From: Notoacmeibacter marinus
GTDB taxonomy: Bacteria; Pseudomonadota; Alphaproteobacteria; Rhizobiales; Rhizobiaceae
Length of the DNA stretch: 24,000 bases
Direction of reading: 5' to 3'
Assembly (NCBI RefSeq): GCF_002238045.1
Contig: NZ_NBYO01000001.1
Coordinates: 1,466,161 to 1,490,160 of the forward strand
Both the position numbers and the translations under genes were made by a program. Under the pieces are notes generated by a model. That model did no database searches and had not been told where the DNA came from. It worked only from the letters and a program-made list of their open reading frames with translations. How positions within the stretch are numbered: position 1 is the stretch's first letter; each line of letters starts with the position of its first letter. Positions 10,332 to 24,000 of this stretch are shown here, piece after piece.

Positions 10332-10334
10332 GGT

Positions 10335-10414
10335 TCTACCTGAGATTGGACAAGGGTTGCCGGAGCGTAACCGCGGCCACTATGCTCAACAAGCTCAGGA
10401 TTTCCTCAGGTAGA
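10335..10414. promoter_or_regulatory. Pair of inverted 10-nt motifs (TCTACCTGAG / CTCAGGTAGA) framing the vWA-luxR divergent promoter
   Basis: 10335-10344 and 10405-10414 are perfect reverse complements. Each gene therefore carries CTCAGGTAGA in its own leader, 3 nt before the vWA ATG and 11 nt before the luxR GTG. Confidence 0.3.
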
Positions 10415-10425
10415 CGGTATCAATC

Positions 10426-11145
10426 GTGGATGCAGATCAGTTTGCCGACTATGTGGAGCGTCTCGGTCGGGCCGACTCCAGGGACGTGGTCTGGTCCGTC
10501 GTTTGCGGTTATTTCGATCAGGCCGGCTTCGATGGGGTGTTCTATGCCGATCTTGCGCCCGGCCGCGCGATCCTTCGCACCAATCTGACGAAATGCTGGA
10601 CCGATCACTACGCCGCCGAGCACTATTTCGACATCGATCCCTTTTTCCGGCATTCCTGCAGCCAGTTGGCCGTGACCTCGACGGGTCAGGACTATTTCGA
10701 CGAACACCCCTATCTCGACCGCCAGGAGCGCCAATTCATTCTAACGGCGGGCGAAACCGGCATGACGGCGGGGTTGGCGCTGCCCGTCCGCCTGGCCGGT
10801 CCGGGAGGGGTCGGCGGCTGGAACGTGGTGACGAGCCATGGCCGTGAAACGGTTGACCGCCTGCGTGGAAGTGGATGGAGGATCTTTCACCTCGCTGCGC
10901 TTCTGGCCCACGAGCGAATGCGCGACATGACCGCGACGGACAAATCCGCGCCGCTGACCGAGCGGGAGATGGAAACGCTGCGCTGGGCGGCCAGCGGCCT
11001 GCGAACCAAGGAAATCGCGCTGAAGATGCGCATCAGCGCGGCGACCGTGGAATTTCACGGCCGGAACGCCCGCCACAAGCTCGGCGCGAAAACCCGCGAG
11101 CAGGCCGTCGCCATCGCCCTGACACGCGGGCTGATAGCGATGTGA
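10426..11145 (+). CDS. LuxR-family transcriptional regulator with an N-terminal autoinducer-binding-like domain (LuxR solo)
   Basis: 239 aa with a GTG start. The N-domain has the W..Y...Y.DIDP pattern (WTDHYAAEHYFDIDPF). The C-terminal HTH reads LTEREMETLRWAASGLRTKEIALKMRISAATVEFHGRNARHKLGA. No LuxI-type synthase is in the window. Confidence 0.85.
   Translation: MDADQFADYVERLGRADSRDVVWSVVCGYFDQAGFDGVFYADLAPGRAILRTNLTKCWTDHYAAEHYFDIDPFFRHSCSQLAVTSTGQDYFDEHPYLDRQERQFILTAGETGMTAGLALPVRLAGPGGVGGWNVVTSHGRETVDRLRGSGWRIFHLAALLAHERMRDMTATDKSAPLTEREMETLRWAASGLRTKEIALKMRISAATVEFHGRNARHKLGAKTREQAVAIALTRGLIAM
10962..11145 (+). repeat. Direct repeat copy 1: the intact 3' end of luxR
   Basis: My hand alignment to 22685-22867 finds 19 substitutions plus one 1-nt gap over 184 nt, about 89% identity. 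Confidence 0.9.
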
Positions 11146-11277
11146 GGGGGCCATGCAAAAAGACGGTCCTGAAAGTTTATCGAACCCCCGATATGTCTCC
11201 GGCCCACGAGGCGGGCTTTGGCCAAAACATCGCTTTACGACGCTGCCCTGACACGCCCCCGCTGCTCGGACCGAAAA

Positions 11278-13134
11278 TTATTGCACTGGACGATATACTG
11301 TAATTCGACGATCAACATATGCGACAGGGACGGACGGTCCCACGGCACGATAGTCCTCCGGGAATTGCAGCCCAATCGGTTTCAGACTTGCGTTGAGCAC
11401 TTCGGTGGAGAGGCCGTTTCGCGCTCCTTCAGGGCCTGGCATATACACGGCGATCCACATGGTGCGCAGATCGTCCTCGGTCAGTCGTGACAGCGCCCAG
11501 GTCAGAAAGTCGTTACTCCCATCATAGCCGGATAGAATCCAGGGCATGGACGGCACCCGGAAATCACCCATCCAGTTCAAGCCCGGAGCGCGGCCCGACA
11601 GGTCCAGCAGAACAGGGCGACCGTCCTGCCGTGCTTCTTTCCATTGCCGCGTCTCGCGCAATGCCGCCATCGCGCGATAGGTCTCGGCGATGGGCGGTGT
11701 GACACGCCAGACTTCGCCGCCGGCCTGGACGCGTTCTGTCGCTGCTGAGAGGGGCTCAAGCATTCGGTAGGGTTTGGAAGCTGCCAGATCGAGCGCGCTG
11801 AATGTAAGGCCCGCGCCGAGAAGCACCGTTATAGCCATCGCCGTATGGCGGCCGCGCTCCAAAGCCAAGGCCACGAGGAAAAGCGCCGCAATGGATGCTC
11901 CCGTGAAGATTGTCGCATGCGAAATGATTCTGCTGGCCGTGCCCAGACTCAACCCATACGGTGCACAACCGAAGAGCGTCGCAAAGAGCGCCAAACGCAG
12001 ATCGCGGCCCGGCGCGAGCCAGACGAGTAGAGATGCGCCCAAGCCAAAAACCCATACGCGCTGGGCCATATTGTCGAAGTCGTTCACGTACTCCACCACG
12101 AGTGCGCATGTCCCGAGAAGTGCCAGCACCGTCAGGATCATCGGCATCCAACGCTGTCGGTCGTAGAGCCGGGTCTGCGCGAGGCCAAGACACAAAAGTG
12201 GCAACATGAGCATCAGCGGTTCGCCGAAGAGATATTCGGCAAACTGGGCAAGCGTGTCGAAAAGCTCTACTATGAGCTTTCCCAGGCTCACGTCGTGACT
12301 GGCGAGGATCGCCGCCGTCTCGAACCCGGTCGTCAAACGTTCCCACAAGATGGACAGCGGGAGCGTTGCGGCGGAGAGCAGCAGTGCAGAGACGAGCCCA
12401 CCCATGATGACGCAGGATGCGACGAGGACGAGCGCTCCGAACACCCGGCCTGCCGGGAGCCGCGCTTGCCACAGCGCGGCGAGGGCGAAGAGCGGCAGAG
12501 CCATTACGACGAAGGCGACGCCGGAGCTGATCTTCAGAAACAGCAAACAGAAGAGTGCCGCACCCAGAGCAAGTCCGCCGCCGATCGCGGCAGTGACCCT
12601 ACCGCTTGTTGCCGCGCTCCACAGTGCCCAGAGCGCAGCCGAGGCGATGAAGACGACCGGGAGGACGAGCCCGTTGTAATTCGGGTCCATCAGAAGCCAT
12701 TTGTAGTAGGCCGAGTTCCCGGCCATGGCTGCAAGAAGCCCGGCAAGCAGAAGCGGCCACGGTTCTCCCTGCCGTCGTGCCCCAAGAATGGCGGGCACCA
12801 GTAAAGCGAGCGGGGCCGCGAAGATGAAGATGAGCGTGGCAAGCCGGATGGTTTGCAACGAGGCGTCCCCTGCGAAGGCGGCGACCAACGGACCGAAACC
12901 CGTCAGATTGCTGGCGATCTCGGCGTATTCCGTGTGCATGAGGACGTAGAAGGCACTGTCGGACAGCTCTGGTCCGAGGTCGATCGCGCCCCAAAGGAAG
13001 AACAGGGCCCATCCCAGCGCACCTGCCGCCAGAGCCAACGAGAGCCAGGGGACGAGATCGGCAAGAACACCCATCGCCCGCGTTGCGACCCTGATGGAGG
13101 CCGCCTTTGCTGGCAAAGTGCTGGGCGCGGTCAT
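11278..13134 (-). CDS. Polytopic inner-membrane protein with a C-terminal soluble domain; candidate GT-C-type (ArnT/Gtr-like) polyprenyl-phosphate-sugar-dependent glycosyltransferase
   Basis: About a dozen hydrophobic segments are followed by a ~150-aa non-hydrophobic C-terminus. Acidic residues sit in the first predicted loop (DLGPELSDS). Start set at ATG 13134 (GGAGA RBS) rather than 13245. It is transcribed divergently from the sugar operon. The fold assignment is inference. Confidence 0.55.
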   Translation of the reverse strand: MTAPSTLPAKAASIRVATRAMGVLADLVPWLSLALAAGALGWALFFLWGAIDLGPELSDSAFYVLMHTEYAEIASNLTGFGPLVAAFAGDASLQTIRLATLIFIFAAPLALLVPAILGARRQGEPWPLLLAGLLAAMAGNSAYYKWLLMDPNYNGLVLPVVFIASAALWALWSAATSGRVTAAIGGGLALGAALFCLLFLKISSGVAFVVMALPLFALAALWQARLPAGRVFGALVLVASCVIMGGLVSALLLSAATLPLSILWERLTTGFETAAILASHDVSLGKLIVELFDTLAQFAEYLFGEPLMLMLPLLCLGLAQTRLYDRQRWMPMILTVLALLGTCALVVEYVNDFDNMAQRVWVFGLGASLLVWLAPGRDLRLALFATLFGCAPYGLSLGTASRIISHATIFTGASIAALFLVALALERGRHTAMAITVLLGAGLTFSALDLAASKPYRMLEPLSAATERVQAGGEVWRVTPPIAETYRAMAALRETRQWKEARQDGRPVLLDLSGRAPGLNWMGDFRVPSMPWILSGYDGSNDFLTWALSRLTEDDLRTMWIAVYMPGPEGARNGLSTEVLNASLKPIGLQFPEDYRAVGPSVPVAYVDRRITVYRPVQ

Positions 13135-13246
13135 CGTATGATCTCCATTCTGCCCCGTGGAGTGGACGGATTGCGGCTTTGGATTCGGCAGCGTGTGGTG
13201 TATGTGCCAAACGATCTGCGTTGTCCATGAGAGGTGTCCCACCACA

Positions 13247-13627
13247 ATGTTCAGCTATGCGACGTCCTTGGTTTTGCTGGCCTTGAGCATAATGTCGGTG
13301 GCGTCGTCTCAGTTGATCCTGAAATGGCGATTGGGCGATCTGACCGGTGAAGGCGACGGACGTTTGCCGTTGAGCCGATTTATCTGGGCCGCGGTCTCGG
13401 ATGTCTGGGTCTGGGCCGGCGGTGCTTTGATCATCGTCAGCGCTGCCATGTGGTATGCTGCACTGACGCGGCTTCCCTTGTCCTTCATGATGCCCGCCGC
13501 CGCCCTTATCGCGCCCATCACCGTGATTTTCGCATATTTCCTTCTTCGCGAGCCGGTCTCACTCGGTCAGGCTTCGGCGATCCTGGTCATCACGGCAGGT
13601 GTCGCATGGCTGAGCTACCAGCAGTAG
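13247..13627 (+). CDS. Small 4-TM EamA/SMR-like membrane protein, ArnE/ArnF-like candidate flippase for a polyprenyl-phosphate-linked sugar
   Basis: 126 aa from ATG 13247. It has four hydrophobic segments. SVASSQLILKW and LREPVSLGQASAILVITAGV resemble ArnE/ArnF (…SVAGQL…, …HEPVS…). It is the first gene of the operon. Confidence 0.6.
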   Translation: MFSYATSLVLLALSIMSVASSQLILKWRLGDLTGEGDGRLPLSRFIWAAVSDVWVWAGGALIIVSAAMWYAALTRLPLSFMMPAAALIAPITVIFAYFLLREPVSLGQASAILVITAGVAWLSYQQ

Positions 13628-13635
13628 GACAGGGC

Positions 13636-14514
13636 ATGGACAGGCTGCTCGATCGTCTCGATTCTTTTACAGAACGGCTGGACCGGGCAGCACTGGTGGA
13701 TGCCGTTCTCCGTTATCGGGATATGCCCCGTGACCGGGCGACGCTGATGATTGAGACGTATCTGGGCGAGATGCCGACAGGCGCACGGATCGTGGCGCCG
13801 CATCTACAGCCCGGCCAACGCATCCTGGAGGTCGGCTCCGGCATCGGCGTGCTGAGTGCATTCCTGTTGAGCGAAGGTTTCGAAGTTCTCGGGATCGAAC
13901 CGGGCCAGGACGGCGGTTTCAGCTTCATGACTGCGCTCTGCCAAGCGGTGCTCGATCAGATCCCGGCGGATTTTCGCCCGGATATCCTGCCCATCGGAGC
14001 CGAGGCGCTGACACCGGCGGAGCATGGGACCTTCGATTTGATCTTCTCGGCCAATGTGCTGGAGCATATCATGGCGCTCGACGCGGCGATTCCAGCCATG
14101 CGCGATGTGCTGAAACCCGACGGACTGATGCGGCACCTGTGTCCGAACTACCGCTTTCCCTACGAGCCGCATCTTGGCGTACCCCTGCTTCCTTTCGCGC
14201 CTCAGGCGACGCGTCACCTCATGCCCGGCAAGGTTGCCGCGAACCATGAAATCTGGTCGGGCGTGAATTTCATTACCGCTCACCGCATTGCACGTCTGGC
14301 GCGCGCGAACGGACTGTCCATCGCCTTCGATGATAGCGTGATGGGTGCCTATATGCGCCGGCTCAACGACGATCCCATTTTCGCCAGGCGCCATGGCGGC
14401 CTGCTGGGCGCCGTGGCGCGACGACCGCGCCTTGTGGAAGGGCTGGCGCGCCTGCTGGACGCGGTGCCTTCGGGATGGGCCAGCCCAATGACGCTGACAT
14501 TGCGTCACAGCTGA
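13636..14514 (+). CDS. Class I SAM-dependent methyltransferase
   Basis: Motif I ILEVGSGIGVLS and post-I/II FDLIFSANVLEH. The start at ATG 13636 lies 8 nt after the preceding stop; ATG 13606 is an alternative. Confidence 0.8.
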   Translation: MDRLLDRLDSFTERLDRAALVDAVLRYRDMPRDRATLMIETYLGEMPTGARIVAPHLQPGQRILEVGSGIGVLSAFLLSEGFEVLGIEPGQDGGFSFMTALCQAVLDQIPADFRPDILPIGAEALTPAEHGTFDLIFSANVLEHIMALDAAIPAMRDVLKPDGLMRHLCPNYRFPYEPHLGVPLLPFAPQATRHLMPGKVAANHEIWSGVNFITAHRIARLARANGLSIAFDDSVMGAYMRRLNDDPIFARRHGGLLGAVARRPRLVEGLARLLDAVPSGWASPMTLTLRHS

Positions 14515-14554
14515 GCCCGTTTGTCATTGAACGAAATACTTGTATGGACACTCC

Positions 14555-15502
14555 ATGAACAAATCTTTCGAAATTATTCTTGTCACCGGCGGGTTAGGCT
14601 TCATCGGCAAGCATTTCGTGCGACGCTGCCTGGATAACGGTTGCTTTGTGCGCAACATCGATAAGGTGAGCTACGCGGCAGACCTTAAATCGATGGTCGA
14701 ATTCGACGCCCACCCGCATTACCGGCTCCTGCAGATGGATGTCGCGGAGTGTGACTTCCTGCCGGAATGCGACGTCATCGTAAACTTTGCCGCCGAAAGC
14801 CATGTCGACAACGCCATTACGTCCAACAAGCAGTTCTGCCAGTCGAATTTCATGGGCGTCCAGAACATGCTTGAGCGGGTGCGTGCCAAGCAGGCGCGTG
14901 AACGCCCTCTGTTCATTCAGATCTCCACCGACGAGGTCTATGGCGACATCTCCAACGGAAAGCATTCCGAAGCCGATCTTTTGAAACCCTCGAACCCCTA
15001 TTCGGCGACGAAGGCCTCGGCGGACATGCTTGTCACCAGCTGGGGCCGGACCTACGGGATCGACTGGAACATCATGCGTCCGACCAACAATTACGGTTGC
15101 CAGCAATATCCCGAGAAGCTTATCCCCAAGAGCGCCTGGCGGATGCGGCGCGGTCAGCCGGCGCTGATGCACGGGGATGGCAGTTATGTGCGTTCCTGGC
15201 TCCATGCAGAAGATACGGTCGATGCCATCCTGACGGTGATCGAGCGGGGGGAGCGCAACAGCATCTACAATATCGGCAGCGATACCGAATTGCGTAACAT
15301 CGAAGTGCTTCGGGCGATCGCCGAGCATCTGAAGGTGCCCGAGGAAGATGCATGGATGGCGACCGGCAACCGAACGGGCCAGGATGTCCGCTACAGCCTC
15401 GACGACAGCAGGCTGCGAGAACTCGGCTGGGCGCCGAAGCGCCAATTTTTCGAGGAGTTGCCCGGCATTGTAGACAGCTTCGATTTCATGCGCTTCAGCT
15501 GA
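14555..15502 (+). CDS. rmlB: dTDP-glucose 4,6-dehydratase-like SDR (RmlB/RfbB family)
   Basis: ILVTGGLGFIGKHF, NFAAESHVDNAI, ISTDEVYG, NPYSATKASADML and NNYGCQQYPEKLIP together match the RmlB signature set. Start set at ATG 14555. Confidence 0.85.
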   Translation: MNKSFEIILVTGGLGFIGKHFVRRCLDNGCFVRNIDKVSYAADLKSMVEFDAHPHYRLLQMDVAECDFLPECDVIVNFAAESHVDNAITSNKQFCQSNFMGVQNMLERVRAKQARERPLFIQISTDEVYGDISNGKHSEADLLKPSNPYSATKASADMLVTSWGRTYGIDWNIMRPTNNYGCQQYPEKLIPKSAWRMRRGQPALMHGDGSYVRSWLHAEDTVDAILTVIERGERNSIYNIGSDTELRNIEVLRAIAEHLKVPEEDAWMATGNRTGQDVRYSLDDSRLRELGWAPKRQFFEELPGIVDSFDFMRFS

Positions 15503-15530
15503 GTGAGCGGAGCCAAGCGAGAGCCATACG

Positions 15531-16685
15531 ATGAAGGTGGATTTCTACAAACACGGATTGACCGAGACGGATGCGGCGGGGATCGCCGAGGTCCTCAAGA
15601 CGCCCTTCCTGACGACCGGGCCCGTCGCGCATGGGGTCGAGGACCAGCTTCGGCGCTATTTCGACGTGCCCCACGCCGCGCTGGTCAACAGCTGGACGAA
15701 CGGCGCAGTGGCGACGCTCCTTGCCATGGGCGTCGGACCTGGTGACGAAGTCCTTGTCCCGGCAGAGACATTCGTCGCATCTGCCAATGTCGTCGAATTG
15801 ATCGGTGGGACAGCGCGGCTCGTGGATGTGGATCCCGATACGCTCCTCCTTACACCCGAAACTGCCGCTGCTGCCGTGACCGAGCGGACGAAAGCCGTCA
15901 TGCCGGTCCACCTCTATGGCCGGATGGTGGATATCGCTGCGCTCCGTGATGCGATCGAAGCTGCCGCAGCGCCCGGCCAACGCATATACATCCTGGAGGA
16001 TTGCGCCCACTGCTTTGAAGGAAAACTGGACGGGGACCGTCCGGGGGCTCATTCCGATGCGGCGATCTTTTCATTCTACGCGACGAAGAACGTCACATGC
16101 GGCGAGGGCGGCGCGGTGATCCTGCGGGATGATGCCCTGCATGGGAGCCTGTTGGAGACCCGCCTTCACGGCATGTCCGCGACCGCGATCGATCGCTTCA
16201 AAGGCGGTAAGTATAATCACTGGGGCATGGAGCAATTGGGCGTGAAGGCGAACCTGCCCGATCTGCTGGCGGCGCTTCTGCCGAGGCAAATCGAGACGAT
16301 CGACGAGCTGCTTTCCCAACGTCATGCCCTCGCCGGTCGCTACCGCGCCGCGTTCGACGGCACGGGACTTCGGATGCCGGCCATCGTCGAGGGCGCGACG
16401 GATGCCGCGCACCTCTTCACCATCGGGGTGAATGAGCGTGACCGGGTCATCGCCATTCTCAACAACGCGGGAATCTCGGTGACGGTGAATTTCAGGGCGC
16501 TTCCCGACCTCGGTTATTACGCCAAGAAATACCCCGAGAGCCTGGCCGCCTGTCCGGCCGCCGTCGCCTGGGGACGCCAGACGATCAGCCTGCCGTTTTA
16601 TCCGGGTATGCCGCAGGCGCATCAGGATCACGTTATCGAGACCGTTCTGCAGATTGCGGCATCGCCAGAGTTCCAGCTGCTATGA
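15531..16685 (+). CDS. DegT/DnrJ/EryC1/StrS-family PLP-dependent sugar aminotransferase
   Basis: 384 aa with ...ALVNSWTNGAVATLLAMGVGPGDEVLVP... and the catalytic-Lys region FSFYATKNVTCGEGG. Confidence 0.9.
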   Translation: MKVDFYKHGLTETDAAGIAEVLKTPFLTTGPVAHGVEDQLRRYFDVPHAALVNSWTNGAVATLLAMGVGPGDEVLVPAETFVASANVVELIGGTARLVDVDPDTLLLTPETAAAAVTERTKAVMPVHLYGRMVDIAALRDAIEAAAAPGQRIYILEDCAHCFEGKLDGDRPGAHSDAAIFSFYATKNVTCGEGGAVILRDDALHGSLLETRLHGMSATAIDRFKGGKYNHWGMEQLGVKANLPDLLAALLPRQIETIDELLSQRHALAGRYRAAFDGTGLRMPAIVEGATDAAHLFTIGVNERDRVIAILNNAGISVTVNFRALPDLGYYAKKYPESLAACPAAVAWGRQTISLPFYPGMPQAHQDHVIETVLQIAASPEFQLL

Positions 16686-17812
16686 CTTGCGTGGCCTGTG
16701 GGACGGCGACATTGGATCTGCCGGTGCCTCACCCCACACAATCTATGCTCAGCGATGGGCGAATCTCGCAGCGCGTGCTGGCAAAATCGCGTTGTCCGGC
16801 CTGCGGCCTCATCCAGCATTCGGAATTGCCGGACATAGCCACCGTGCGGAGCTTCTACGGGGCGGAATATAACCTGGCCGTGGAGACTGCGCCATCCGAC
16901 GTGTCCCGGTCGTCTGCCTATGCTGATCTTCTGCTGGCGCGCCTGGATGCCGTACCTCTGCGCGTTATGGAAATCGGGTGCGGGTCAGGCCATACGCTGC
17001 GCGCCCTGGCCGCGACCTGGCAGAACACCGCCTTCGTGGGCTATGAGGCTGCGCCCCAAGTTGCGGCTTCGGCCAAAGGTGCAGACCCGCGCGTGACGAT
17101 ACGGAACGGCTTTGTCGAAGATCTGCTTCTGCCCGAGGCCGGAGCCGGATTCGACATGGTCTTTTCGATCAACGTCTTCGAACATGCCGCCGATCCGGTT
17201 GCCTTCCTCGCGGCTAAGGCTGCGCAGCTCACGATGGGCGGCGCGATCGTGATCATCTGTCCAAAGTCGGTTCCACCCAACATGGAGCTGGTTTTCCAGG
17301 ATCACATTTACAGCTTCACACCGGAAGCTGTCGCCGCATTGGCCGAACGGGCTGGGCTCGTTTTGATAGAACATGATCCGGCTCCGGCTGGACTGGGCGA
17401 TTTCCAACTCTTCGTCTTTTCCCGCGACGGTCAGAGCGCCGAGACCGCTTCTGCCGCCTCGCATGACGATTTTGCGACATACATGGCTGGTTGGTCGCGG
17501 CTCGACGCGGTGCTGTCAGAAGCCCTGAACGACATCACCGGCCATGCTTTCGTTTTTGGCGCGGGAGAAATGGCAGGGCTCCTTCGGGCCTATGCGCCCG
17601 CGACCTGGGGAGCGGTGGAAGCGTGCGTCGTGGACGACCTTGCCGGCGCGCGTGCGCTGGGAGTGCCGGTAAAAAAGCTGGAAGAGGTTCAGCCGGGCAA
17701 TTGCGACGCCGTCATCGTCGCCACGCATCCCCGCACCCAGAAGGCCATTGCGCGGCGGTTCGGTGCATCGGAGGCGACCATCCTTACCTTCGACGAGCTG
17801 ATCGCCCGATAA
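16682..17812 (+). CDS. SAM-dependent methyltransferase with an N-terminal Cys4 zinc ribbon and an extra C-terminal domain (NDP-hexose C-methyltransferase-like architecture)
   Basis: CVACG...CPACG ribbon, motif I VMEIGCGSGHTL, then FDMVFSINVFEH, followed by a ~120-aa C-terminal Rossmann-like region (FVFGAGEMAG). ATGA overlap with the aminotransferase stop. Confidence 0.7.
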   Translation: MTCVACGTATLDLPVPHPTQSMLSDGRISQRVLAKSRCPACGLIQHSELPDIATVRSFYGAEYNLAVETAPSDVSRSSAYADLLLARLDAVPLRVMEIGCGSGHTLRALAATWQNTAFVGYEAAPQVAASAKGADPRVTIRNGFVEDLLLPEAGAGFDMVFSINVFEHAADPVAFLAAKAAQLTMGGAIVIICPKSVPPNMELVFQDHIYSFTPEAVAALAERAGLVLIEHDPAPAGLGDFQLFVFSRDGQSAETASAASHDDFATYMAGWSRLDAVLSEALNDITGHAFVFGAGEMAGLLRAYAPATWGAVEACVVDDLAGARALGVPVKKLEEVQPGNCDAVIVATHPRTQKAIARRFGASEATILTFDELIAR

Positions 17813-17828
17813 GACAGGAGACCGTTCC

Positions 17829-18662
17829 ATGGAAATGGCAGTCAAGAATTACGGCGTGAAGCATCGAACTCCGCCAGGCGATGTCGTGGATCGCGCCCTG
17901 GAGCAACTGAAGCTCGTCGGATACGCAGTGGTCGACTCAGGGTACGATGCCGAAGAGCAAGCCGAAATCGCCGCCGCATTCGATCGCGCTCACGCGGCGC
18001 AGGCGGAAAGATACGGCGCCGATGCACTGCGCGAGATCGACGAGCACAATACCGTGCGGATGCCCATGCTCTATGAGGCGATCTTCGGAAAGCTGGCGCA
18101 GAACCCGCGGGTCCTGGCGATCACCGAGCACCTGATTGGCGGCTCATATAGCACCGGGACTTTCATCCTCAATCAGCAGAACGGGATCGTCAATCCGGCC
18201 GGGAAGGACTACAATCAGGCAGCCTATCACCGCGACCTGCCGTATCAGCACTTCACCAGCTCGCGTCCTCTCGCGCTGAACGCACTTTACTGTGTCGATC
18301 CCTTCACAAGCGAAAATGGCGCGACACTCGTCGTTCCAGGTACGCACAAAAGTGAACCGTTTCCGTCCGATGACACGGTGCGCGCCCTGGAGCGGCAGAT
18401 CACGGCATCGGCAGGCAGTTTCCTCGTTCTCGACTGCATGGTCTATCATTCCGGGGCTCCCAACCGAAGCACCGCCGATCGCCGCGCTGTCAATCACGTC
18501 TACACGATCCCGATGATCCGTCAGCAGATCGACATGCCGGCGATCCTGGGCCATCGGGACGACCTGTCGGACGACGCGCGAAAGCTTTTCGGTTACGGCG
18601 CGCAGCACATCACGTCGCTCGACGCCTACTACGCCTCACGGCGTTCTCGATTGGAAGGCTAG
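17829..18662 (+). CDS. PhyH-family Fe(II)/2-oxoglutarate-dependent oxygenase
   Basis: 277 aa with a candidate HxD...H facial triad (YHRDLPY ... VYHSGAPNRS). AGGAG RBS lies 8 nt upstream. Confidence 0.7.
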   Translation: MEMAVKNYGVKHRTPPGDVVDRALEQLKLVGYAVVDSGYDAEEQAEIAAAFDRAHAAQAERYGADALREIDEHNTVRMPMLYEAIFGKLAQNPRVLAITEHLIGGSYSTGTFILNQQNGIVNPAGKDYNQAAYHRDLPYQHFTSSRPLALNALYCVDPFTSENGATLVVPGTHKSEPFPSDDTVRALERQITASAGSFLVLDCMVYHSGAPNRSTADRRAVNHVYTIPMIRQQIDMPAILGHRDDLSDDARKLFGYGAQHITSLDAYYASRRSRLEG

Positions 18663-18666
18663 GGAT

Positions 18667-19407
18667 ATGACAAGCCAGAAGACGGTCGTCATCCTCCAGT
18701 CGAACTACATCCCCTGGAAGGGCTATTTCGATCTGATGAATGCCGCGGATGTGTTCGTGCTCTTCGATGAAGTGCAGTTCTCCCGCCGTGACTGGCGCAA
18801 CCGCAACAAGATCATCATCCAGGGACAGCCACGCTGGCTGACCATACCGGTGCAATCGAAGGGCAAGTATGCCGCCCCGGTCTCGGAAATCGAAGTCACC
18901 GATGGCAGCTGGGCCCAGAAGCACTGGACCTCCATCGAGCTCGCCTACGGCAAATCACCGTTCTTCCGGGACTACGCCCCTGGCCTCGAAACCACTTATG
19001 GAGAGGCCGCCAAGGAAACGCACCTGAGTTCGATCAACCGACTTTTCCTTGACCATCTGGCGACGGCCCTGGGCATAAACGTCACCTTCGGGCGGTCCGA
19101 TTCCGTCCCGCGACAAAGCGATGATCCGGCCGAACGCCTGATCGAAATTTGCCGGGGGTACGGCGCGACGCGCTATCTTTCCGGGCCGGCGGCCAAGAGT
19201 TACATTGATCCCCAGCTATTCGTCGATGCCGGGATAGACCTCCGCTATGCCGATTATTCCGGCTATCCGACCTATGCGCAGCAAAGCGAGGATTTCGAGC
19301 ACGGGGTGAGTATCATCGACATGTTGATGACCTTGGGGCCCGACACGGCCAGCCACCTGAAGTCGCAGATCCCCGGCGGCTTGTTCGAAACGCCAGAAAA
19401 GCGCTAA
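18667..19407 (+). CDS. WbqC-family protein (biochemical function unknown; typical of polysaccharide loci)
   Basis: The N-terminus VVILQSNYIPWKGYFDLMNAADVFVLFDEVQFSRRDWRNRNKI matches the WbqC-like pattern (hxQPxYhPWxGYF...D). Confidence 0.65.
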   Translation: MTSQKTVVILQSNYIPWKGYFDLMNAADVFVLFDEVQFSRRDWRNRNKIIIQGQPRWLTIPVQSKGKYAAPVSEIEVTDGSWAQKHWTSIELAYGKSPFFRDYAPGLETTYGEAAKETHLSSINRLFLDHLATALGINVTFGRSDSVPRQSDDPAERLIEICRGYGATRYLSGPAAKSYIDPQLFVDAGIDLRYADYSGYPTYAQQSEDFEHGVSIIDMLMTLGPDTASHLKSQIPGGLFETPEKR

Positions 19408-19416
19408 AGGGCCTTC

Positions 19417-21000
19417 ATGCGCATTTCCCTCGTTACCCCGCTCTACCGAAGCGCATCCAGCCTGCGTGAGTTGTGCGACAGGGCTGATGCGACGATGAGA
19501 GCGCTGACGCCCGATTACGAGATCGTACTGGTCAATGATGGTTGTCCTGACAATAGCCTGACGGTCGCACGCGAGATTGCAACGGAAAATCCCCATGTCC
19601 GGGTCATCGATCTGTCACGAAATTACGGCCAGCACCCAGCGCTGATGACAGGGCTGGAGGCCGCGACCGGCGATTACATCTTCATTTGTGACAGCGATTT
19701 GGAAGAAGAACCGGAATGGATCGCGACCTTCTTTTCGCGACTTGTGGAAGAAGACGATTGCGACGTCGTCTATGGCATCCAGCAGGCGCGCAAAGGCAAC
19801 ATGTTCTATCGTGGCGCCAGGCGCCTGTTCTACCGAACATTGAGCTGGACGTCCGGCATCGATTTTCCCGCCAACATCATCACTGCCCGCCTGATGACCC
19901 GTCGCTACGTCGATGCGGTCCTTCAGTTCAGGGAACGAGAGCTTTTCGCCGCAGGCATCTGGCACATGGCGGGCTTTCGCCAGATTCCTTACGCCGTGGA
20001 CAAACCACCACGCGATGACACCACCTACACATTCCGAAAGCTCGTGGGCATCTTCGTCAACGCGGTAACGGCCTTCTCCGTGCGGCCGCTTCAGGCGATC
20101 TCCATTGCAGGCGTTGTGCTCTCGCTTTCCGCAATCATTTTTATCATCTATCTGATATTCCAGCGGTTTTTCGGAGTAGTGCTGGAAGGTTGGACGTCCG
20201 TTATCGCAGCGATTCTTCTTGTTGGCGGGGTGACGCTTTTCTTCAACGGCGTCATCGCAATCTATCTTGCGAAAGTGTTTCTCGAGGTGAAGCGACGCCC
20301 GCTGACGATTGTGCGAGAGGTCATCAATCCCGAGCTTCCGCCCGCAATGATCGAAGGCGGCAATTATCGCAGCATCGTTTCCCATTACGAGGCATGTCTC
20401 GAGGATTACGGAGTGGGTCCCAAGGCGGTGGACTGGAAGGACGAGCATGCCGCCACGACGCGCTACGACGTCATGCTCGACCTACTGCCTAAAACAAAAG
20501 AGCCCGTGACACTTCTCGATTTCGGATGCGGGCTCGGCGGCCTGAAGAAGCATATCGACGCGCGGGGCCTCGACCATATCCAATATGAAGGCCTCGACCT
20601 TTCGCCAGCCTATGTTGAGGCCGCACGGAATGCCCTGCCCGGAACGACGATTCACTGTCTCAATGTTCTGGAAACGCCGGAGGCGCTGGGCAGCTACGAT
20701 TACATCGTGATGAACGGGATCTTCACGCGGCGCCAGGACCTGACCGAAGCGGAGATGTTTTCCTATCTGGAACGACTTGGCGGGGCTGTCTTTGCCAGGG
20801 CCAAACGGGGGCTGGCCTTCAACGTCATGTCCATGCATGTCGACTGGAAGAACGAGAAGCTGTTTCACCCAGAAACTGCCGCACTCGCGCAGGTCGTATG
20901 CCGCGCATTCTCCCGGCACATAGTTCTGCGGGAGGATTATGGGCTCTATGAATGCACGTGCTACGCCTACAAGGCGGCCACATCCAGGAAAGACGTCTGA
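19417..21000 (+). CDS. Fusion protein: GT2 polyprenyl-phosphate glycosyltransferase (ArnC/GtrB/DPM1-like, two TM helices) plus a C-terminal class I SAM methyltransferase domain
   Basis: GT2 part: ISLVTPLYRS..., EIVLVNDGCPDNS, RNYGQHPALMTGLEAATGDYIFICDSDLEEEP. TM helices: AISIAGVVLSLSAIIFIIYLIF and WTSVIAAILLVGGVTLFFNGVIAIYLAKVF. MTase part: LLDFGCGLGGL, YDYIVMNGIF. Confidence 0.8.
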   Translation: MRISLVTPLYRSASSLRELCDRADATMRALTPDYEIVLVNDGCPDNSLTVAREIATENPHVRVIDLSRNYGQHPALMTGLEAATGDYIFICDSDLEEEPEWIATFFSRLVEEDDCDVVYGIQQARKGNMFYRGARRLFYRTLSWTSGIDFPANIITARLMTRRYVDAVLQFRERELFAAGIWHMAGFRQIPYAVDKPPRDDTTYTFRKLVGIFVNAVTAFSVRPLQAISIAGVVLSLSAIIFIIYLIFQRFFGVVLEGWTSVIAAILLVGGVTLFFNGVIAIYLAKVFLEVKRRPLTIVREVINPELPPAMIEGGNYRSIVSHYEACLEDYGVGPKAVDWKDEHAATTRYDVMLDLLPKTKEPVTLLDFGCGLGGLKKHIDARGLDHIQYEGLDLSPAYVEAARNALPGTTIHCLNVLETPEALGSYDYIVMNGIFTRRQDLTEAEMFSYLERLGGAVFARAKRGLAFNVMSMHVDWKNEKLFHPETAALAQVVCRAFSRHIVLREDYGLYECTCYAYKAATSRKDV

Positions 21001-21001
21001 A

Positions 21002-21667
21002 ATGCCCAAGCCTATCGTAATCTTCGGGACGGGAGAACTGGCAGAGGTCGCGGCGTTCTATTTCGAGGCCGACGCAGGCCGGGAGATTGCGGCCTTCACC
21101 ATCGACGGAGACCGGATCGGGTCGAATCGTTTCGCCGGAAAAGCCGTGCTGCCCTTCGAAGATATCGTGACAAGTCATGGACCCGGCGACCACGATCTCT
21201 TCGTGGCGGTCGGCTATTCGGGGCTGAACGACCTGCGGGCGGCGAAATGCGCCGAGGCGGAAGGCAAGGGTTACACTCTGCCGAGCTACGTTTCGTCCAG
21301 GGCGACAACATTCTCGGATTTCGCCTGTGGGTCCAACTGTTTCATCCTCGAAGACAACACCATCCAACCATTCGTGCGCATCGGACGCGGTGTGACGCTA
21401 TGGAGCGGCAACCATATCGGGCATCACAGCAGCATCGGAGATTTCGCCTTTATCAGCAGCCATGTCGTGATCTCCGGCGGCGTCAGTGTCGGCGCCCATA
21501 GCTTCATAGGGGTCAACGCGACCACCAACGACCACATCGCAATCGGAGCGCGCTGCGTCATCGGTTCGGGTACGACGGTCGCAAAGTCCATTCCTGACGA
21601 GACGGTCATCACGTCGGAGCCGGGCAAGATCGCCAAGATCCCGAGTTCCCGCCTCCGGGGTTTTTGA
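21002..21667 (+). CDS. NeuD/PglD-type sugar N-acyltransferase (N-terminal Rossmann-like domain plus left-handed beta-helix)
   Basis: MPKPIVIFGTGELAEVAAFYFE... is followed by hexapeptide repeats (IGRGVTLWSGNHIGHHSSIGDFAFISSHVVISGGVSVGAHSFIGVNATT). Start set at ATG 21002, one nt after the preceding stop. Confidence 0.8.
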   Translation: MPKPIVIFGTGELAEVAAFYFEADAGREIAAFTIDGDRIGSNRFAGKAVLPFEDIVTSHGPGDHDLFVAVGYSGLNDLRAAKCAEAEGKGYTLPSYVSSRATTFSDFACGSNCFILEDNTIQPFVRIGRGVTLWSGNHIGHHSSIGDFAFISSHVVISGGVSVGAHSFIGVNATTNDHIAIGARCVIGSGTTVAKSIPDETVITSEPGKIAKIPSSRLRGF

Positions 21668-21670
21668 CGG

Positions 21671-22585
21671 GTGGAGTTCAGGCGACTCAAGCGGGTCTTC
21701 GGTGCGGAGGACGGCCCTGACTGGATGGTCAGCCATGCCGCCTATCCAACCCCAGTTTGGCTGTCGGACGATCATCTGAGAGTCTTCATCGTCGCACGCG
21801 ACAGCGACAATCGGGGTTCTGTCGGGTGGGTGGATCTGGACCCTCAGGATCCCACTCAGGTCGTTGCCGTTTCGGAAACGCCGGCTCTGCGGCCCGGTCC
21901 CACCGGAACGTTCTACGACCGTGGAATATCGATCGGCTCGATCCATCGGCGGCCGGACGGCGCGCTCTGGATGTATTTCCTTGGATGGAACAAGTCGGCC
22001 GACGTTCCCTTCCGCAACTCCATCGGCCTTGCCATAGACAGATCGGGGCGCGGTGACAGGTTCGAGCCTGCCTTCGAGGGTCCGCTCATCGACCGCAGCC
22101 GCCACGATCCATTCACGCTGAGCTATCCTTACACCAGTCCGCCACAGGCGACCGGTTGCCGGTGGCACATGCTCTACGGAACCAGTCGCGGAGGCGGTCT
22201 CGACGAGCGACAGATGCAACATGCGTTGTCCGAAGCCTGGTCGTCTGACGGGATCGACTGGTCACCGACAGGGCGTGATGTGATTCCCCTGGAGGAAGGC
22301 GAATACGGGTTGTCTCGACCCTGGATTTTCGATGCGCTGGGCGCACGGCAGGTCGTCTTCGCCATACGCCGCGCACAATACACGATAGGCTGGTCGAGCT
22401 GGGATCCGGATGCCGGTATCTGGCATCGCCAATCGCGGGACCTTCTGGGCCCTGGTGCCAAATGGGACGGTGAGGCCACCTGTTACCCGGCCGTGACCCA
22501 CCTGGTTGGAAGGATTCTGTTGTTCTATAATGGCAATGGTTATGGGCGGACGGGCTTCGGTGTTGCCGAATGGACCGGACGATAG
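21671..22585 (+). CDS. Cytoplasmic 5-bladed beta-propeller protein of the GH43/32/68/130-like superfamily (function unknown)
   Basis: Recurrent blade-like patterns: DGALWMYFLGWN...SIGLAIDRSG, AWSSDGIDWSP, ILLFYNGNGYGRTGFGVAEW. No signal peptide. GTG start at 21671; ATG 21725 is an alternative. Confidence 0.5.
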   Translation: MEFRRLKRVFGAEDGPDWMVSHAAYPTPVWLSDDHLRVFIVARDSDNRGSVGWVDLDPQDPTQVVAVSETPALRPGPTGTFYDRGISIGSIHRRPDGALWMYFLGWNKSADVPFRNSIGLAIDRSGRGDRFEPAFEGPLIDRSRHDPFTLSYPYTSPPQATGCRWHMLYGTSRGGGLDERQMQHALSEAWSSDGIDWSPTGRDVIPLEEGEYGLSRPWIFDALGARQVVFAIRRAQYTIGWSSWDPDAGIWHRQSRDLLGPGAKWDGEATCYPAVTHLVGRILLFYNGNGYGRTGFGVAEWTGR

Positions 22586-22684
22586 ATGCATCTCTGATGT
22601 AACCGCTGTCCCGCGGCGATGATTTCGGTTCTCTTTTTGATTTGTGGTGTGAGGGTTTGCGGTCGGCCTCGCCGCACGTGCCCG

Positions 22685-22867
22685 GCGGGAGATGGAAACG
22701 CTGCGCTGGGTGGCCAGCGGTCTGCGAACCAAGGCGATCGCGCTGAAGATGCGCATCAGCGCGGCGACCGTGGAATTTCGCGGACGCAACGCCCGCAGGA
22801 AGCCCGGCGCCAAAACCTGCGAGCGGCTGTCGCCATCGCCCTGACGCGCGGCCTGATTGCGGTGTTA
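22685..22867 (+). pseudogene. LuxR-family HTH remnant: direct repeat copy 2, 5'-truncated and frameshifted
   Basis: It translates as ...EMETLRWVASGLRTKAIALKMRISAATVEFRGRNARRKPGAKTCE. A 1-nt deletion relative to copy 1 then brings in a premature TGA. The ancestral stop position reads TTA. There is no N-terminal domain or start codon upstream. Confidence 0.85.
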
Positions 22868-22918
22868 GGGCCGAAGTACTAGTATGGACTGATGTGTCCA
22901 GAACGGACACTTGAAAAA

Positions 22919-22965
22919 TGGCGATCCCGACAGAATTCAAACCTGTCCCGCAGATTCAAATCCTG
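22919..22965 (-). pseudogene. Partial, decayed copy of the 3' half of tRNA-Arg(CCT) (att-like direct repeat)
   Basis: 22919-22946 matches 23465-23492 at 26 of 28 nt. The next 10 nt match 9 of 10 after a 2-nt gap. Similarity fades through the anticodon arm, and there is no 5' half. Confidence 0.75.
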
Positions 22966-22980
22966 CCATTCCGACCATTT

Positions 22981-23340
22981 TCAACAGCGACAATTCAGCT
23001 CATACTCAGGCTCAGGTTCGCAGAAAAGCTCTTGCCGGGGAAATTCGATCTTGCCGCCAGGAAAAGTTGCGAAGAAGCCGCCATTCGCCCAGCACCACTC
23101 GCCATAACCAAATGCCTTCACATGGGCATCGCATGATCGGCCCAAGGCAAGCGTCTCGCGCTCAGACTTGATCTGTGTACCAGCGCCGTGCCCGATGAAT
23201 CGGCCGACCGGATTGACAGACTTCAAGCTATAACCATTGGCATTGCAGGTCAGCCTATATTCATGCCCCTCTCCAGACATGTAGGCCGACGCTGGAGCCG
23301 CGAGGGCTATCAGAAAAATTCCTGCAAGTCCCAGCTTCAT
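22981..23340 (-). CDS. Small secreted cysteine-rich hypothetical protein
   Basis: Start at ATG 23340 after GGAGAGG. Signal peptide MKLGLAGIFLIALAAPASA. The ~100-aa mature part has six Cys. It is the only gene in the lower-GC islet. Confidence 0.55.
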   Translation of the reverse strand: MKLGLAGIFLIALAAPASAYMSGEGHEYRLTCNANGYSLKSVNPVGRFIGHGAGTQIKSERETLALGRSCDAHVKAFGYGEWCWANGGFFATFPGGKIEFPRQELFCEPEPEYELNCRC

Positions 23341-23464
23341 GCGCCTCTCCATGTTGCGTGGAACAGCCGAGCATAGCTGTATCTCGTTGTATTTCAATGG
23401 TTGCCAGTGCAACATGATCCAACATGAAATCAGCCAGATTGAAAACGTAAGCTTTTAAAATAGT

Positions 23465-23541
23465 TGGCGATCCCGACAGGATTCGAACCTGTGACCCTCA
23501 GATTAGGAATCTGATGCTCTATCCTGCTGAGCTACGGGACC
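23465..23541 (-). tRNA. tRNA-Arg (anticodon CCT), 77 nt with encoded CCA
   Basis: Cloverleaf folded by hand: GGTCCCG TA GCTC AGCAGGATA GAGC A TCAGA TTCCTAA TCTGA GGGTC ACAGG TTCGAAT CCTGT CGGGATC G CCA. Confidence 0.9.
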
Positions 23542-23731
23542 GCGCGCTTTCCGCTTAGCAGAAGCGGCCGGGTCTTTCCAAGATGCAAAGAAGGGCGATA
23601 TATCCCTGCGCTCTGGACCGGCGCGGCCGGAACGGCAATATTTGCGCTTCACGTCCGGGACCGTCCCATTGCCGCCGCAACTGGTTGTCAAAGCCGGCCG
23701 GATCAACGCTCAACGCCGTTCAGGACCAAAG

Positions 23732-24000
23732 ATGCGCCACCGCTCCTTCCTCGCCAGCCTTCTCGTGCTCTGCCTGTCCATCGGAGCGGCGGGAGCCAAT
23801 CCGCATATCGTAGTCGACGTCGAAACGGGCAAGGTATTGGCGCACGAACGGGCCTTCGACCGCTGGTATCCGGCCTCGATCACCAAGATCATGACGGCCT
23901 ATCTGGCGTTCGAGGCCGTGCAGTCTGGCGATCTTTCCATGCGCTCGCCCGTCAGGATCACCAAGCGCGCCGCCGCCGAACCGCCGAGCAAGATGGGCTA
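23732..24000 (+). CDS. D-alanyl-D-alanine carboxypeptidase (S11 penicillin-binding protein), N-terminal part; continues past the window end
   Basis: My own translation from ATG 23732 gives MRHRSFLASLLVLCLSIGAAGANPHIVVDVETGKVLAHERAFDRWYPASITKIMTAYLAFEAV..., with the SxxK active-site motif SITK after a signal peptide. Confidence 0.8.
   Translation, partial: MRHRSFLASLLVLCLSIGAAGANPHIVVDVETGKVLAHERAFDRWYPASITKIMTAYLAFEAVQSGDLSMRSPVRITKRAAAEPPSKMG

Follow-up and report, generated by a model that had tools for sequence, protein, structure and literature searches.

Homologous exchange within a luxR gene combined with a single illegitimate joint, an HFIR-like displacement of the 3' end of the gene, probably explains, though with considerable room for doubt, how a glycan cluster came to lie between two copies of the luxR 3' end in Notoacmeibacter marinus. 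We analysed a window of 24,000 nucleotides (the whole stretch of DNA, to which all positions refer). Given the empty and alternative sites found in relatives, the cluster is a strain-specific island in a luxR/tRNA-Arg(CCT) hot spot of Notoacmeibacter. The relevant features are as follows.

10426-11145, + strand: intact LuxR-solo gene, 239 aa, with Pfam matches Autoind_bind (PF03472) and GerE (PF00196)
10865-11100, + strand: imported 'W-type' tract within luxR, nearest to Logan contig L004
10962-11148, + strand: left repeat copy (direct repeat), from luxR codon 179 through the stop codon and 3 nt beyond, spanning the HTH domain
11149-11277: left junction of the island; TGAGGGGG matches the L002 empty site, followed by island-specific DNA
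11278-13245, - strand: polytopic membrane protein, first island gene (annotated form 618 aa), candidate GT-C/RgtA-like glycosyltransferase
13450-22585, + strand: nine-gene glycan operon, by domain matches: a methyltransferase, a dTDP-glucose 4,6-dehydratase-like protein, a DegT aminotransferase, a second methyltransferase, a PhyH dioxygenase, WbqC, an ArnC/PgfS-like GT2 fused to a methyltransferase, a NeuD/VioB acetyltransferase and a GH130/DUF377-like protein
22586-22655: island tail past the last gene, homologous to the tail of related cluster L009
22656-22685: zone of the illegitimate, non-homologous joint at which island DNA meets luxR-internal sequence, where homologies end and begin
22685-22870, + strand: right repeat copy, displaced and 5'-truncated luxR 3' end, a pseudogene fragment
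22871-22918: spacer, found in L001 directly behind intact luxR (51 nt from the stop codon)
22919-22958, - strand: 3'-half relic of tRNA-Arg(CCT), direct repeat of 23465-23504
22981-23415, - strand: small ORF with a signal-peptide-like N-terminus, the sole cargo left in a 0.55 kb islet between relic and tRNA
23465-23541, - strand: intact tRNA-Arg(CCT) (ARAGORN), 3' end toward luxR and the islands

The luxR 3' end pair is the only long repeat in the window and was recovered in three ways: with MAFFT, with a repeat finder (families D1 and D2, spacing 11722-11723) and with BLASTN of the window against itself (10946-11148 against 22666-22870, 206 columns, 87.4%, E=1.4e-67), the last being a check proposed in a preliminary description of this DNA. 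Aligned over 10962-11148 and 22685-22870, the copies shared 164 of 183 bases with one gap and included a run of 43 nt without mismatch (11014-11056). A site-by-site tally gave 19 substitutions and one 1-nt deletion, the same counts as that description had obtained by hand. The deletion lies in the right copy at 22824/22825 (11102 in the left copy) and puts roughly the last 45 nt out of frame, while the stop codon at 22865-22867 has changed from TGA to TTA; frameshift and stop loss had both been read correctly beforehand. The lack of an N-terminal domain in the right copy was likewise borne out, with island-tail homology rather than luxR N-terminal sequence lying upstream, as was the early end of homology past the stop codon, where the copies have GGG alone in common before they diverge.

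The intact gene encodes a protein 100% identical to N. marinus B7H23_07065. It carries an autoinducer-binding domain and a GerE HTH and is a LuxR solo at the level of the locus: neither the 24 kb window nor the 20 kb loci compared in relatives contain a luxI-type gene. Over 9800-10860, the left flank and the 5' part of the gene agree with L001 and L002 at mostly 97-100% identity, the one exception being 10100-10249 (89% to L001). Beyond about 10860, luxR identity to these two island-free relatives drops from 97-100% to 64-82%. Here the window is closest to L004, with 90-93% identity across 10865-11100 compared with about 79% in the luxR 5' part, and L001 and L004 are themselves only 60-78% identical across this tract. 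The intact gene is mosaic: its 3' tract (about 10865-11100) stems from a more distantly related lineage. The two other N. marinus-like genomes have the other luxR allele. Diagnostic sites in the left copy are L004-like through 11100 and L001/L002-like at 11124 and 11130, and the final ca. 45 nt, plus GGGGG, agree with the L002 empty site. This switch, recorded by two diagnostic sites and the GGGGG context, marks a candidate homologous crossover at about 11100-11124. Both repeat copies belong to the same L004-like allele class, which the right copy keeps over its full length. The foreign block as a whole is limited by about 10865 and 22870; the immediate flanks outside it are 97-100% identical to L001/L002, and the luxR portions within it only 64-82%.

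Comparison with relatives showed what the locus looks like without the island. The preliminary description had suggested a search for empty sites in which luxR is directly followed by tRNA-Arg(CCT), and two were found: in L002 the luxR stop and the tRNA are separated by 17 nt and in L004 by 11 nt. In L001, the order behind an intact luxR is 51-nt spacer, tRNA-Arg 3' relic, small ORF and tRNA-Arg, so that only the islet is present. L003 carries 9 kb of unrelated cargo in the slot, at which neither a tRNA repeat nor an integrase was found. The entire nine-gene block is missing from L001, L002 and L003, has 70-76% DNA identity to metagenome contigs L005-L007 and shows GC3 slightly below that of the flanks. 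For the first island gene, Pfam and NCBIfam searches gave no match; its UniRef name is 'Glycosyltransferase RgtA/B/C/D-like', its homologues share 66%, 61%, 46% and 42% identity, and three of them are located within glycan clusters.

The sequence behind the right luxR fragment is the one found behind intact luxR in L001 (98-100% identity). Spacer and relic differ from L001 at three positions in about 100 nt, the small ORF is 97-100% identical, and in 100-nt windows identity was 92-99% over 22835-22984 and 87-100%, mostly 97-100%, over 22885-24000. The small ORF had no family match, and its GC3 is 0.59 compared with 0.73-0.82 in flanking genes. The islet is bounded by a direct repeat of ca. 40 nt of the tRNA (22919-22958 and 23465-23504), the relic (score 54) being the best match after the self-matches of the tRNA gene. 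The relic, which L001 carries in the same decayed state, is an old attachment-site scar. The slot is a hot spot at the 3' flank of tRNA-Arg(CCT), with an older 0.55 kb islet here and other cargo in other strains. The preliminary description did not include the relic, which bears on the interpretation of the locus.

The borders of the island differ in kind. Its left end lies 16 nt past the luxR stop. A possible, very decayed tRNA-Arg 3' relic at 11164-11186 gave a marginal local score of 10 (p about 0.05) and was missed by the window-wide scan; its offset from the luxR stop equals that of the real tRNA in L002. At the right end, the island tail aligns with the L009 tail (local alignment score 19, shuffle p=0.0003) and shows no similarity to luxR upstream of codon 179 (34/84 identical in alignment). 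Homology to luxR starts at 22685 or, with gaps, possibly about 19 nt earlier at 22666. The last island homology (about 22655) and the first luxR homology (22666-22685) do not overlap, so the right joint is non-homologous. Family searches of the main ORFs in the window found no integrase, excisionase or transposase domain, in line with what had been reported earlier for integrases and transposases. Further, neither integrase nor transposase occurred among the syntenic annotated genes of relatives, and the repeat finder detected no inverted repeats at the island ends.

At 14 sites that do not vary among W, L001, L002, L003 and L004, the right copy has a private substitution; these changes are distributed 3:6:5 over the codon positions. 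It is a pseudogene in neutral decay, as these private changes on all three codon positions, the frameshift and the lost stop demonstrate. Judging from its sequence context, it appears to be the displaced 3' end of luxR from an island-free haplotype. About three quarters of the 11% divergence between the copies is decay of the right copy and not divergence between donor and recipient. The earlier view that the repeat is not a recent target-site duplication holds. Private change in the right copy amounts to ca. 8%, compared with 0-3% difference from L001 in the adjoining spacer and islet; for the displacement set out next this counts as a difficulty, since a later homologous exchange in the right flank would be required.

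In the recombination that we infer, an island-bearing haplotype (luxR, TGAGGGGG, island) would have been fused with an island-free one (luxR, 51-nt spacer, relic, small ORF, tRNA-Arg). A homologous exchange would have taken place within the luxR 3' region or immediately to its left, and a single non-homologous joint would have linked codon 179 of the second luxR to the tail of the island (about 22656-22685). The incoming segment would have supplied the complete luxR 3' end, and the old 3' end would have moved 11.7 kb downstream with its original downstream context and then decayed. A homologous anchor is present on the left, where flank and gene 5' part are nearly identical to island-free relatives, and the orphan 3' end retains the downstream context of the island-free haplotype, with spacer, tRNA relic, small ORF and tRNA as in L001. 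Against this displacement stands that the L004-like luxR tract must have been present in both parents, although it is the other allele that occurs in the two further N. marinus-like genomes. Among the loci compared, no island with an intact right end and no full-length W-type luxR with the 51-nt spacer was found. The earlier proposal of an insertion or recombination event in which the 3' end of luxR was rebuilt finds support in the empty sites and in the intact L001 haplotype of the right copy, and its two mechanisms, Campbell-type integration and donor-type replacement with an illegitimate right junction in the resident luxR, remain the best two.

In experiments HFIR occurs only rarely (PMC5361080, which cites de Vries & Wackernagel 2002, Prudhomme et al. 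2002 and Meier & Wackernagel 2003), and recipient DNA is usually deleted with no overlap left; both points speak against it here. A case in E. coli conjugation is known (PMC3240628). It has been invoked for displaced orphan 3' regions at rhs and T6SS loci (PMC5361080). The N. marinus locus shares with HFIR a homologous anchor at one end (luxR and left flank), a non-homologous joint at the other (22656-22685) and integration of foreign DNA without a recombinase of its own. The known cases arose in the laboratory, involve at most a few kb and usually come with a loss of recipient DNA, whereas here an old natural product of 11.5 kb keeps 140-186 nt of the anchor gene twice. C-terminal (3'-end) displacement is described for rhs, CDI and T6SS effector-immunity loci (Kirchberger et al. 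2017, PMC5361080, where Jackson et al. 2009 is also cited). There, too, an incoming module shares the conserved upstream part of a gene and brings a new 3' end plus cargo, and the old 3' end remains downstream as an orphan fragment with its old neighbours. The displaced gene is however a LuxR-family regulator instead of a toxin, the cargo is a glycan biosynthesis operon instead of a toxin tip and immunity pair, and there is one displaced copy, with no array and no evident retained function. As in the replacement of surface-polysaccharide loci (O-antigen and capsule) through homologous exchange in conserved neighbouring genes, a glycan cluster is present, absent or exchanged among close strains and flanking genes are mosaic. 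In classical replacements each side is a homologous crossover and no gene end is duplicated, whereas one side is illegitimate here.

A circular donor is a possible though doubtful alternative. In this Campbell-type integration, a circle with the island and a luxR 3' fragment (codon 179 to stop) would have entered by a single RecA-dependent crossover in the ca. 186-nt homology; it could have arisen by aberrant excision of a tRNA-integrated island that took along the adjacent luxR end in lambda-gal fashion. This predicts the observed order and orientation exactly, with the luxR segment doubled naturally. The L004-like to L002-like switch in the left copy is as expected for a crossover within the repeat, the 43-nt identical run could support RecA exchange, and the marginal tRNA relic at the left end of the island fits a former tRNA-integrated element. 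That relic is not significant, however, and no circular form, replication or mobilisation function is present. The right copy shows no informative reciprocal switch, because its proximal part shares the allele class of the left copy. Circle and linear displacement yield an identical product, and the circle too requires one illegitimate joint and is therefore no more parsimonious.

We regard the reverse direction as rather unlikely. Here, the island would already have been in place, as an old integrant at tRNA-Arg of an L002-like haplotype, perhaps accompanied by an integrase near the tRNA. Incoming island-free DNA (luxR, 51-nt spacer, relic, small ORF, tRNA and right flank) would have recombined homologously on the right and illegitimately on the left, deleting the tRNA-proximal end of the island and depositing the luxR fragment, and a second patch from the same donor would have converted 10865-11100. 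This would account for the missing integrase, for the L002-like luxR end and GGGGG at the left border of the island, for the W-type patch flanked on both sides by core-type sequence and for the shared allele class. It also fits the right flank, which is unusually close to L001 in sequence, and natural transformation with multiple discontinuous donor segments close together is reported in PMC13344027. However, ca. 8% private decay next to 0-3% in the co-imported spacer and islet is hard to square with one recent import, 10962-11100 would be used twice, and direct evidence that the island ever held an integrase is missing.

Genomic islands at tRNA genes are tyrosine-integrase elements that duplicate the tRNA 3' end. 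The glycan island resembles them in its position at the tRNA-Arg(CCT) 3' flank, a classic target, its strain-variable content, its slightly low GC3 and the neighbouring islet with its tRNA direct repeat; further, the nearest related cluster (L005/L007) directly adjoins a tRNA-Arg(CCT) on the 3' side of that tRNA. Site-specific insertion with the luxR 3' end as part of the attachment site or as a long target duplication is nevertheless very improbable and largely refuted. No tyrosine or serine recombinase domain occurs in the main ORFs of the window, and neither att cores nor target-site duplications resemble a 186-nt repeat that begins inside a gene's coding sequence and is 90% identical. The repeat does not include the tRNA relic, the outer end of the island has no significant tRNA repeat, and the visible scar is the luxR repeat and not an att repeat. 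In addition, the L005 cluster is oriented opposite to that here relative to the tRNA, and none of 24 more distant cluster relatives has tRNA-Arg(CCT) within 10 kb.

Ancient tandem paralogy, with a luxR gene originally on each side of the cluster and later degeneration of the right-hand one, has negligible probability: nothing beyond the repeat itself speaks for it, L001-L004 have a single luxR at the locus, the 5' boundary of the right copy against island DNA is abrupt, its downstream context is that of the single luxR in L001, and the scenario is excluded because no relative carries two full-length luxR genes, the case that the preliminary description had named as refuting an insertion. A transposon or IS insertion would be recognised by its transposase, by inverted repeats at its termini and by an identical target duplication as short as 2-14 bp. 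With no transposase, no inverted repeats at the ends and a repeat of 186 nt that is 10% diverged, this candidate was rejected.

A speculative and improbable reading is that the two luxR repeats form an integrase-free, RecA-dependent excision module, in which exchange in the 43-nt core loops out the 11.7 kb cluster. If so, luxR would be fused to the frameshifted, stop-less right end, and glycan decoration and a quorum-sensing-type regulator would both be switched off. This would amount to an on-to-off switch at the population level, with a circular donor able to re-insert through the same homology. The locus is an ordinary but clearly documented footprint of integrase-free exchange of a gene cluster between bacterial strains.

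MAFFT, a repeat finder and BLASTN alike recovered the direct repeat of the luxR 3' end that the preliminary description had placed around the glycan cluster. It was returned by the repeat finder as families D1 and D2, with a spacing of 11722-11723 nt, and by BLASTN as an alignment of 10946-11148 with 22666-22870 (87.4% identity over 206 columns, E=1.4e-67). The 24-kb window has no other long repeat. Over 10962-11148, 164 of 183 aligned bases are identical between the copies, and an earlier hand count of 19 substitutions and one 1-nt deletion was reproduced exactly, site by site. An intact LuxR-type gene (10426-11145, + strand) ends in the left copy, which encodes its HTH; the 239-aa product has Autoind_bind and GerE domains and shows 100% identity to Notoacmeibacter marinus B7H23_07065. 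The right copy, at 22685-22870, had been described as a fragment that is frameshifted near its end and has lost its stop codon, which proved accurate: no N-terminal part is present, the deletion falls at 22824/22825 (ca. 45 nt before the end) and the stop codon is changed from TGA to TTA at 22865-22867. Homology was also said to end shortly after the stop codon, and GGG alone is common to both copies there. The copies have a 43-nt identical core in common, and the differences are unevenly distributed, the first 95 nt containing 4 of them and the last 89 nt 15 as well as the indel. Gene conversion of one copy by the other was considered as the cause of this unevenness; once allelic sites were removed, the imbalance was marginal (rough binomial estimate, p ~0.03) and we make no claim for it. 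A further reading, of low probability, is that the repeats continue to support RecA-dependent loss of the island, which would at the same time inactivate luxR.

The ca. 11.5 kb island enclosed by the two copies contains the following.

Between the copies, - strand: polytopic membrane protein of 655 aa, without a family match and named an RgtA/B/C/D-like glycosyltransferase by one source
Between the copies, + strand: nine-gene operon, characterized by family matches of its products

The operon encodes two methyltransferases, a dTDP-glucose 4,6-dehydratase-like enzyme, a DegT aminotransferase, a PhyH dioxygenase, WbqC, an ArnC/PgfS-like GT2 fused to a methyltransferase, a NeuD/VioB-type acetyltransferase and a GH130/DUF377-like protein. 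Judging from these gene families, the cluster would make a modified amino-deoxyhexose, load it onto a lipid carrier and transfer it to an acceptor in the periplasm; in other bacteria, homologous gene sets sit inside larger polysaccharide loci. As mechanically called, the ORF of the GT2-methyltransferase (19417-21000) runs 62 nt into that of the acetyltransferase (20939-21667), the shared stretch being 20939-21000. The true start of the acetyltransferase probably lies downstream of 20939, since its family match begins only at residue 26. Island GC content is 60.3% compared with 64.0% in the flanks (GC3 0.68-0.77 and 0.73-0.82, respectively), and the tetranucleotide signature does not separate island from flanks (r=0.92 vs 0.87-0.88 within regions). 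This composition is consistent with a related donor or long residence.

Searching with LuxR homologues yielded four syntenic loci in relatives.

L002, N. marinus GCA_003336765.1: luxR stop, 17 nt, tRNA-Arg(CCT), Peptidase_S11 gene; a true empty site
L004, Logan contig: luxR stop, 11 nt, tRNA; likewise empty
L001, GCA_006346345.1: intact luxR, 51-nt spacer, tRNA relic, small ORF, tRNA
L003 (10736-19659), Notoacmeibacter sp. MSK16QG-6: 9 kb of unrelated cargo in the slot between luxR and tRNA-Arg

The first two are empty sites of the kind that the preliminary description had proposed to look for, with luxR followed by tRNA-Arg(CCT). The L003 cargo comprises a LysR regulator, an ABC transporter, an aminotransferase, a PEP mutase and a glutamate dehydrogenase, and this slot holds no tRNA direct repeat, integrase or luxR fragment. 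The sequence that follows the intact luxR of L001 is the same as that which follows the right luxR fragment of the window, with 22885-24000 mostly 97-100% identical to L001 apart from a dip to 87-94% at ca. 23335-23534. No second luxR gene was found at any of the four loci. Compared with several of these haplotypes, none of which has a second luxR, the glycan cluster is therefore inserted DNA. Across five genomes the luxR/tRNA-Arg(CCT) interval occurs in at least four haplotypes, and it is thus a hot spot of recombination in Notoacmeibacter. Ancient luxR paralogy, named beforehand as the scenario that would speak against insertion, is excluded by the single luxR in every relative. The luxR of L002 (10001-10594) carries a 126-nt in-frame deletion that takes out the linker and the terminal part of the autoinducer-binding domain, leaving 197 aa vs 239. 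Elsewhere in the window, ca. 160 nt between fur and fumC (2653-2812) are absent from L001 and L002; this stretch contains CCGGG...CCCGG hairpin motifs and repeated GCCG(A/G)GATGACGG units and looks like a small MITE/REP-type intergenic element.

Between the right luxR copy and the intact tRNA-Arg(CCT) gene (23465-23541, - strand), two further features were found.

22919-22958: relic of the tRNA-Arg(CCT) 3' half, 51 nt past the right luxR copy, missed in the preliminary description
22981-23415, - strand: ORF of 144 aa with a signal-peptide-like start, no family match and a GC3 of 0.59

The relic repeats 23465-23504 of the intact gene in the same orientation (ca. 40 nt, three mismatches and a 2-nt gap). 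The ORF is the only one in the 0.55 kb islet between relic and tRNA, which is also present in L001 and is built just as a typical tRNA-integrated element in decay. A putative third tRNA relic at 11164-11186, 16 nt past the left luxR stop, has a fitting offset and a match that is only marginal and not significant, and it was not used as evidence.

Comparison with the relatives delimits the foreign DNA. The whole left flank is ca. 95% identical to L001 and L002; inside luxR, at ca. 10865, identity drops to 64-82% and stays low until the stop codon. The right fragment is 72-81% identical to the L001 luxR, rising to 92-100% right after the lost stop codon. The block foreign to L001 and L002 therefore spans ca. 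10865-22870 and has both copies inside it. Directly beside this block, 9800-10860 and 22885-23330 are mostly 97-100% identical to L001/L002 compared with about 90-96% farther out, which suggests a recent homologous exchange or sweep around the locus. Compared with L004, the 3' part of the window luxR is 90-93% identical and the 5' part ca. 79%, while the same 3' part is only 60-78% identical between L001 and L004. Because only its 3' part is close to L004, the intact luxR is a chimera of two lineages, with a resident 5' two-thirds and an L004-like 3' tract. At the sites that tell L004 apart from L001/L002, the two copies agree with L004 over 10962-11100; farther on, at 11124 and 11130, only the right copy does so, and the left one matches L001/L002. 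Past the stop codon the left copy runs on with GGGGG, like the L002 empty site. These two sites and their context modestly suggest that the last ca. 45 nt of the left copy and the left border of the island belong to an L002-like haplotype, with a homologous crossover at ca. 11100-11124.

On the right side, 22586-22655, beyond the final gene of the island, can still be aligned with the cluster tail of the metagenome contig L009 (score 19, shuffle p=0.0003), and luxR similarity starts at 22666-22685. Since island and luxR homology meet there as unrelated sequences, the right joint is illegitimate and located within ca. 30 nt. The window encodes no integrase or transposase, as reported before, and no excisionase either. 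The length and divergence of the repeat are far beyond those of a target-site duplication, bearing out the earlier argument against a recent simple one. Promoter scans, terminator scans and RNA folds at the junctions gave nothing above shuffles.

The right copy carries its own record of age. Fourteen of the 19 substitutions are private to it, at sites invariant in the left copy and L001 to L004, and are spread 3:6:5 over codon positions 1, 2 and 3. This spread, the frameshift and the lost stop codon amount to neutral decay. A functional mini-HTH protein (50-aa ORF, 22692-22844) was rejected because private changes affect residues invariant in all orthologues. The remaining five differences are third-position sites at which the right-copy state also occurs in L001, L003 or L004. 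Given 14 private and five allelic differences, the copies were probably ca. 97% identical or better at birth, and, by the measure of these strains, the private divergence of ca. 8% is old. The spacer, relic and islet next to the fragment are 0-3% diverged from L001. Set against the ca. 8% private decay, this implies that the right flank must have been replaced by homologous recombination more recently than the fragment arose, a loose end of our account.

Haplotypes, joint and decay pattern together support and sharpen the earlier interpretation as the footprint of an insertion or recombination event. With slightly better than even confidence, we favor one-ended homologous plus illegitimate joining and leave its direction open. 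An island-bearing haplotype would have met an island-free one, with one homologous exchange within luxR and one illegitimate joint on the other side, and the old luxR 3' end would have been moved downstream along with its own neighbors. The product is as expected from these two events. It matches homology-facilitated illegitimate recombination in the sense of PMC3240628 and also fits the "3'-end displacement" put forward for loci of rhs and T6SS effectors, in which orphan 3' regions build up (PMC5361080). Conceptually, this reading overlaps with the next two. The same product would come from a circle with a luxR 3' fragment that integrated by one Campbell-type crossover; this would account more naturally for the duplicated stretch, though we consider it rather unlikely. 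Slightly less probable still are reversed roles, in which the island was resident and incoming island-free DNA took away its tRNA-proximal end; this would account for the missing integrase and the embedded luxR patch but fits poorly with a decayed fragment beside a nearly L001-identical spacer and islet. Integrase-mediated insertion or paralogy, given a window free of integrase genes and relatives with one luxR each, deserves hardly any credence. Scans of genome contigs with the 655-aa membrane protein, and of metagenomes with DNA of the window's own luxR allele and a membrane-protein alignment, did not find a parental haplotype.

The nearest relatives of the cluster lie on metagenome contigs (L005-L007 and L009), with 66% identity for the membrane protein and 70-76% at the DNA level. 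In L005 (11849-15146) and L007 (8320-11617), the membrane-protein stop codon overlaps the 3' end of tRNA-Arg(CCT), on whose 5' side lie an HTH_17 (AlpA-like) gene and a VapE-like primase gene. Relative to this tRNA, the cluster in L005 and L007 is oriented in reverse of the window, and DNA downstream of the membrane gene shows no homology between L005 and the window. After the last cluster gene of L009 (5465-7565), GTGAGAGTGAGTCCAAC-TGTCGAT... aligns with the L004 junction of luxR stop, GGTGAGTCCAA spacer and tRNA 3' end (shuffle p=0.003), and an IS5-like DDE transposase gene comes next. This far end is possibly a relic of a luxR/tRNA junction in another organism, and it hints, together with the L005/L007 arrangement, that this cluster lineage has a past at tRNA-Arg(CCT). 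The cluster family is not generally tied to this tRNA: the association is absent in 24 more distant relatives and several metagenome contigs, and the closest relative (L005/L007) alone adjoins it.

In conclusion, the locus is a well-documented instance of known processes, namely a hot spot beside a tRNA gene, displacement of a gene end and exchange of an island without an integrase. It offers a clean natural case of a whole polysaccharide-modification operon moved between close strains without mobile-element machinery, where the neighboring conserved gene would have been the homologous handle and a decaying gene end is the dated scar. The chimeric LuxR solo could matter for studies of ligand or DNA specificity, with recognition-helix residues that appear nearly unchanged. 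Scars of the decaying gene-end type can be searched for systematically and may lead to integrase-free islands overlooked by island-prediction tools.
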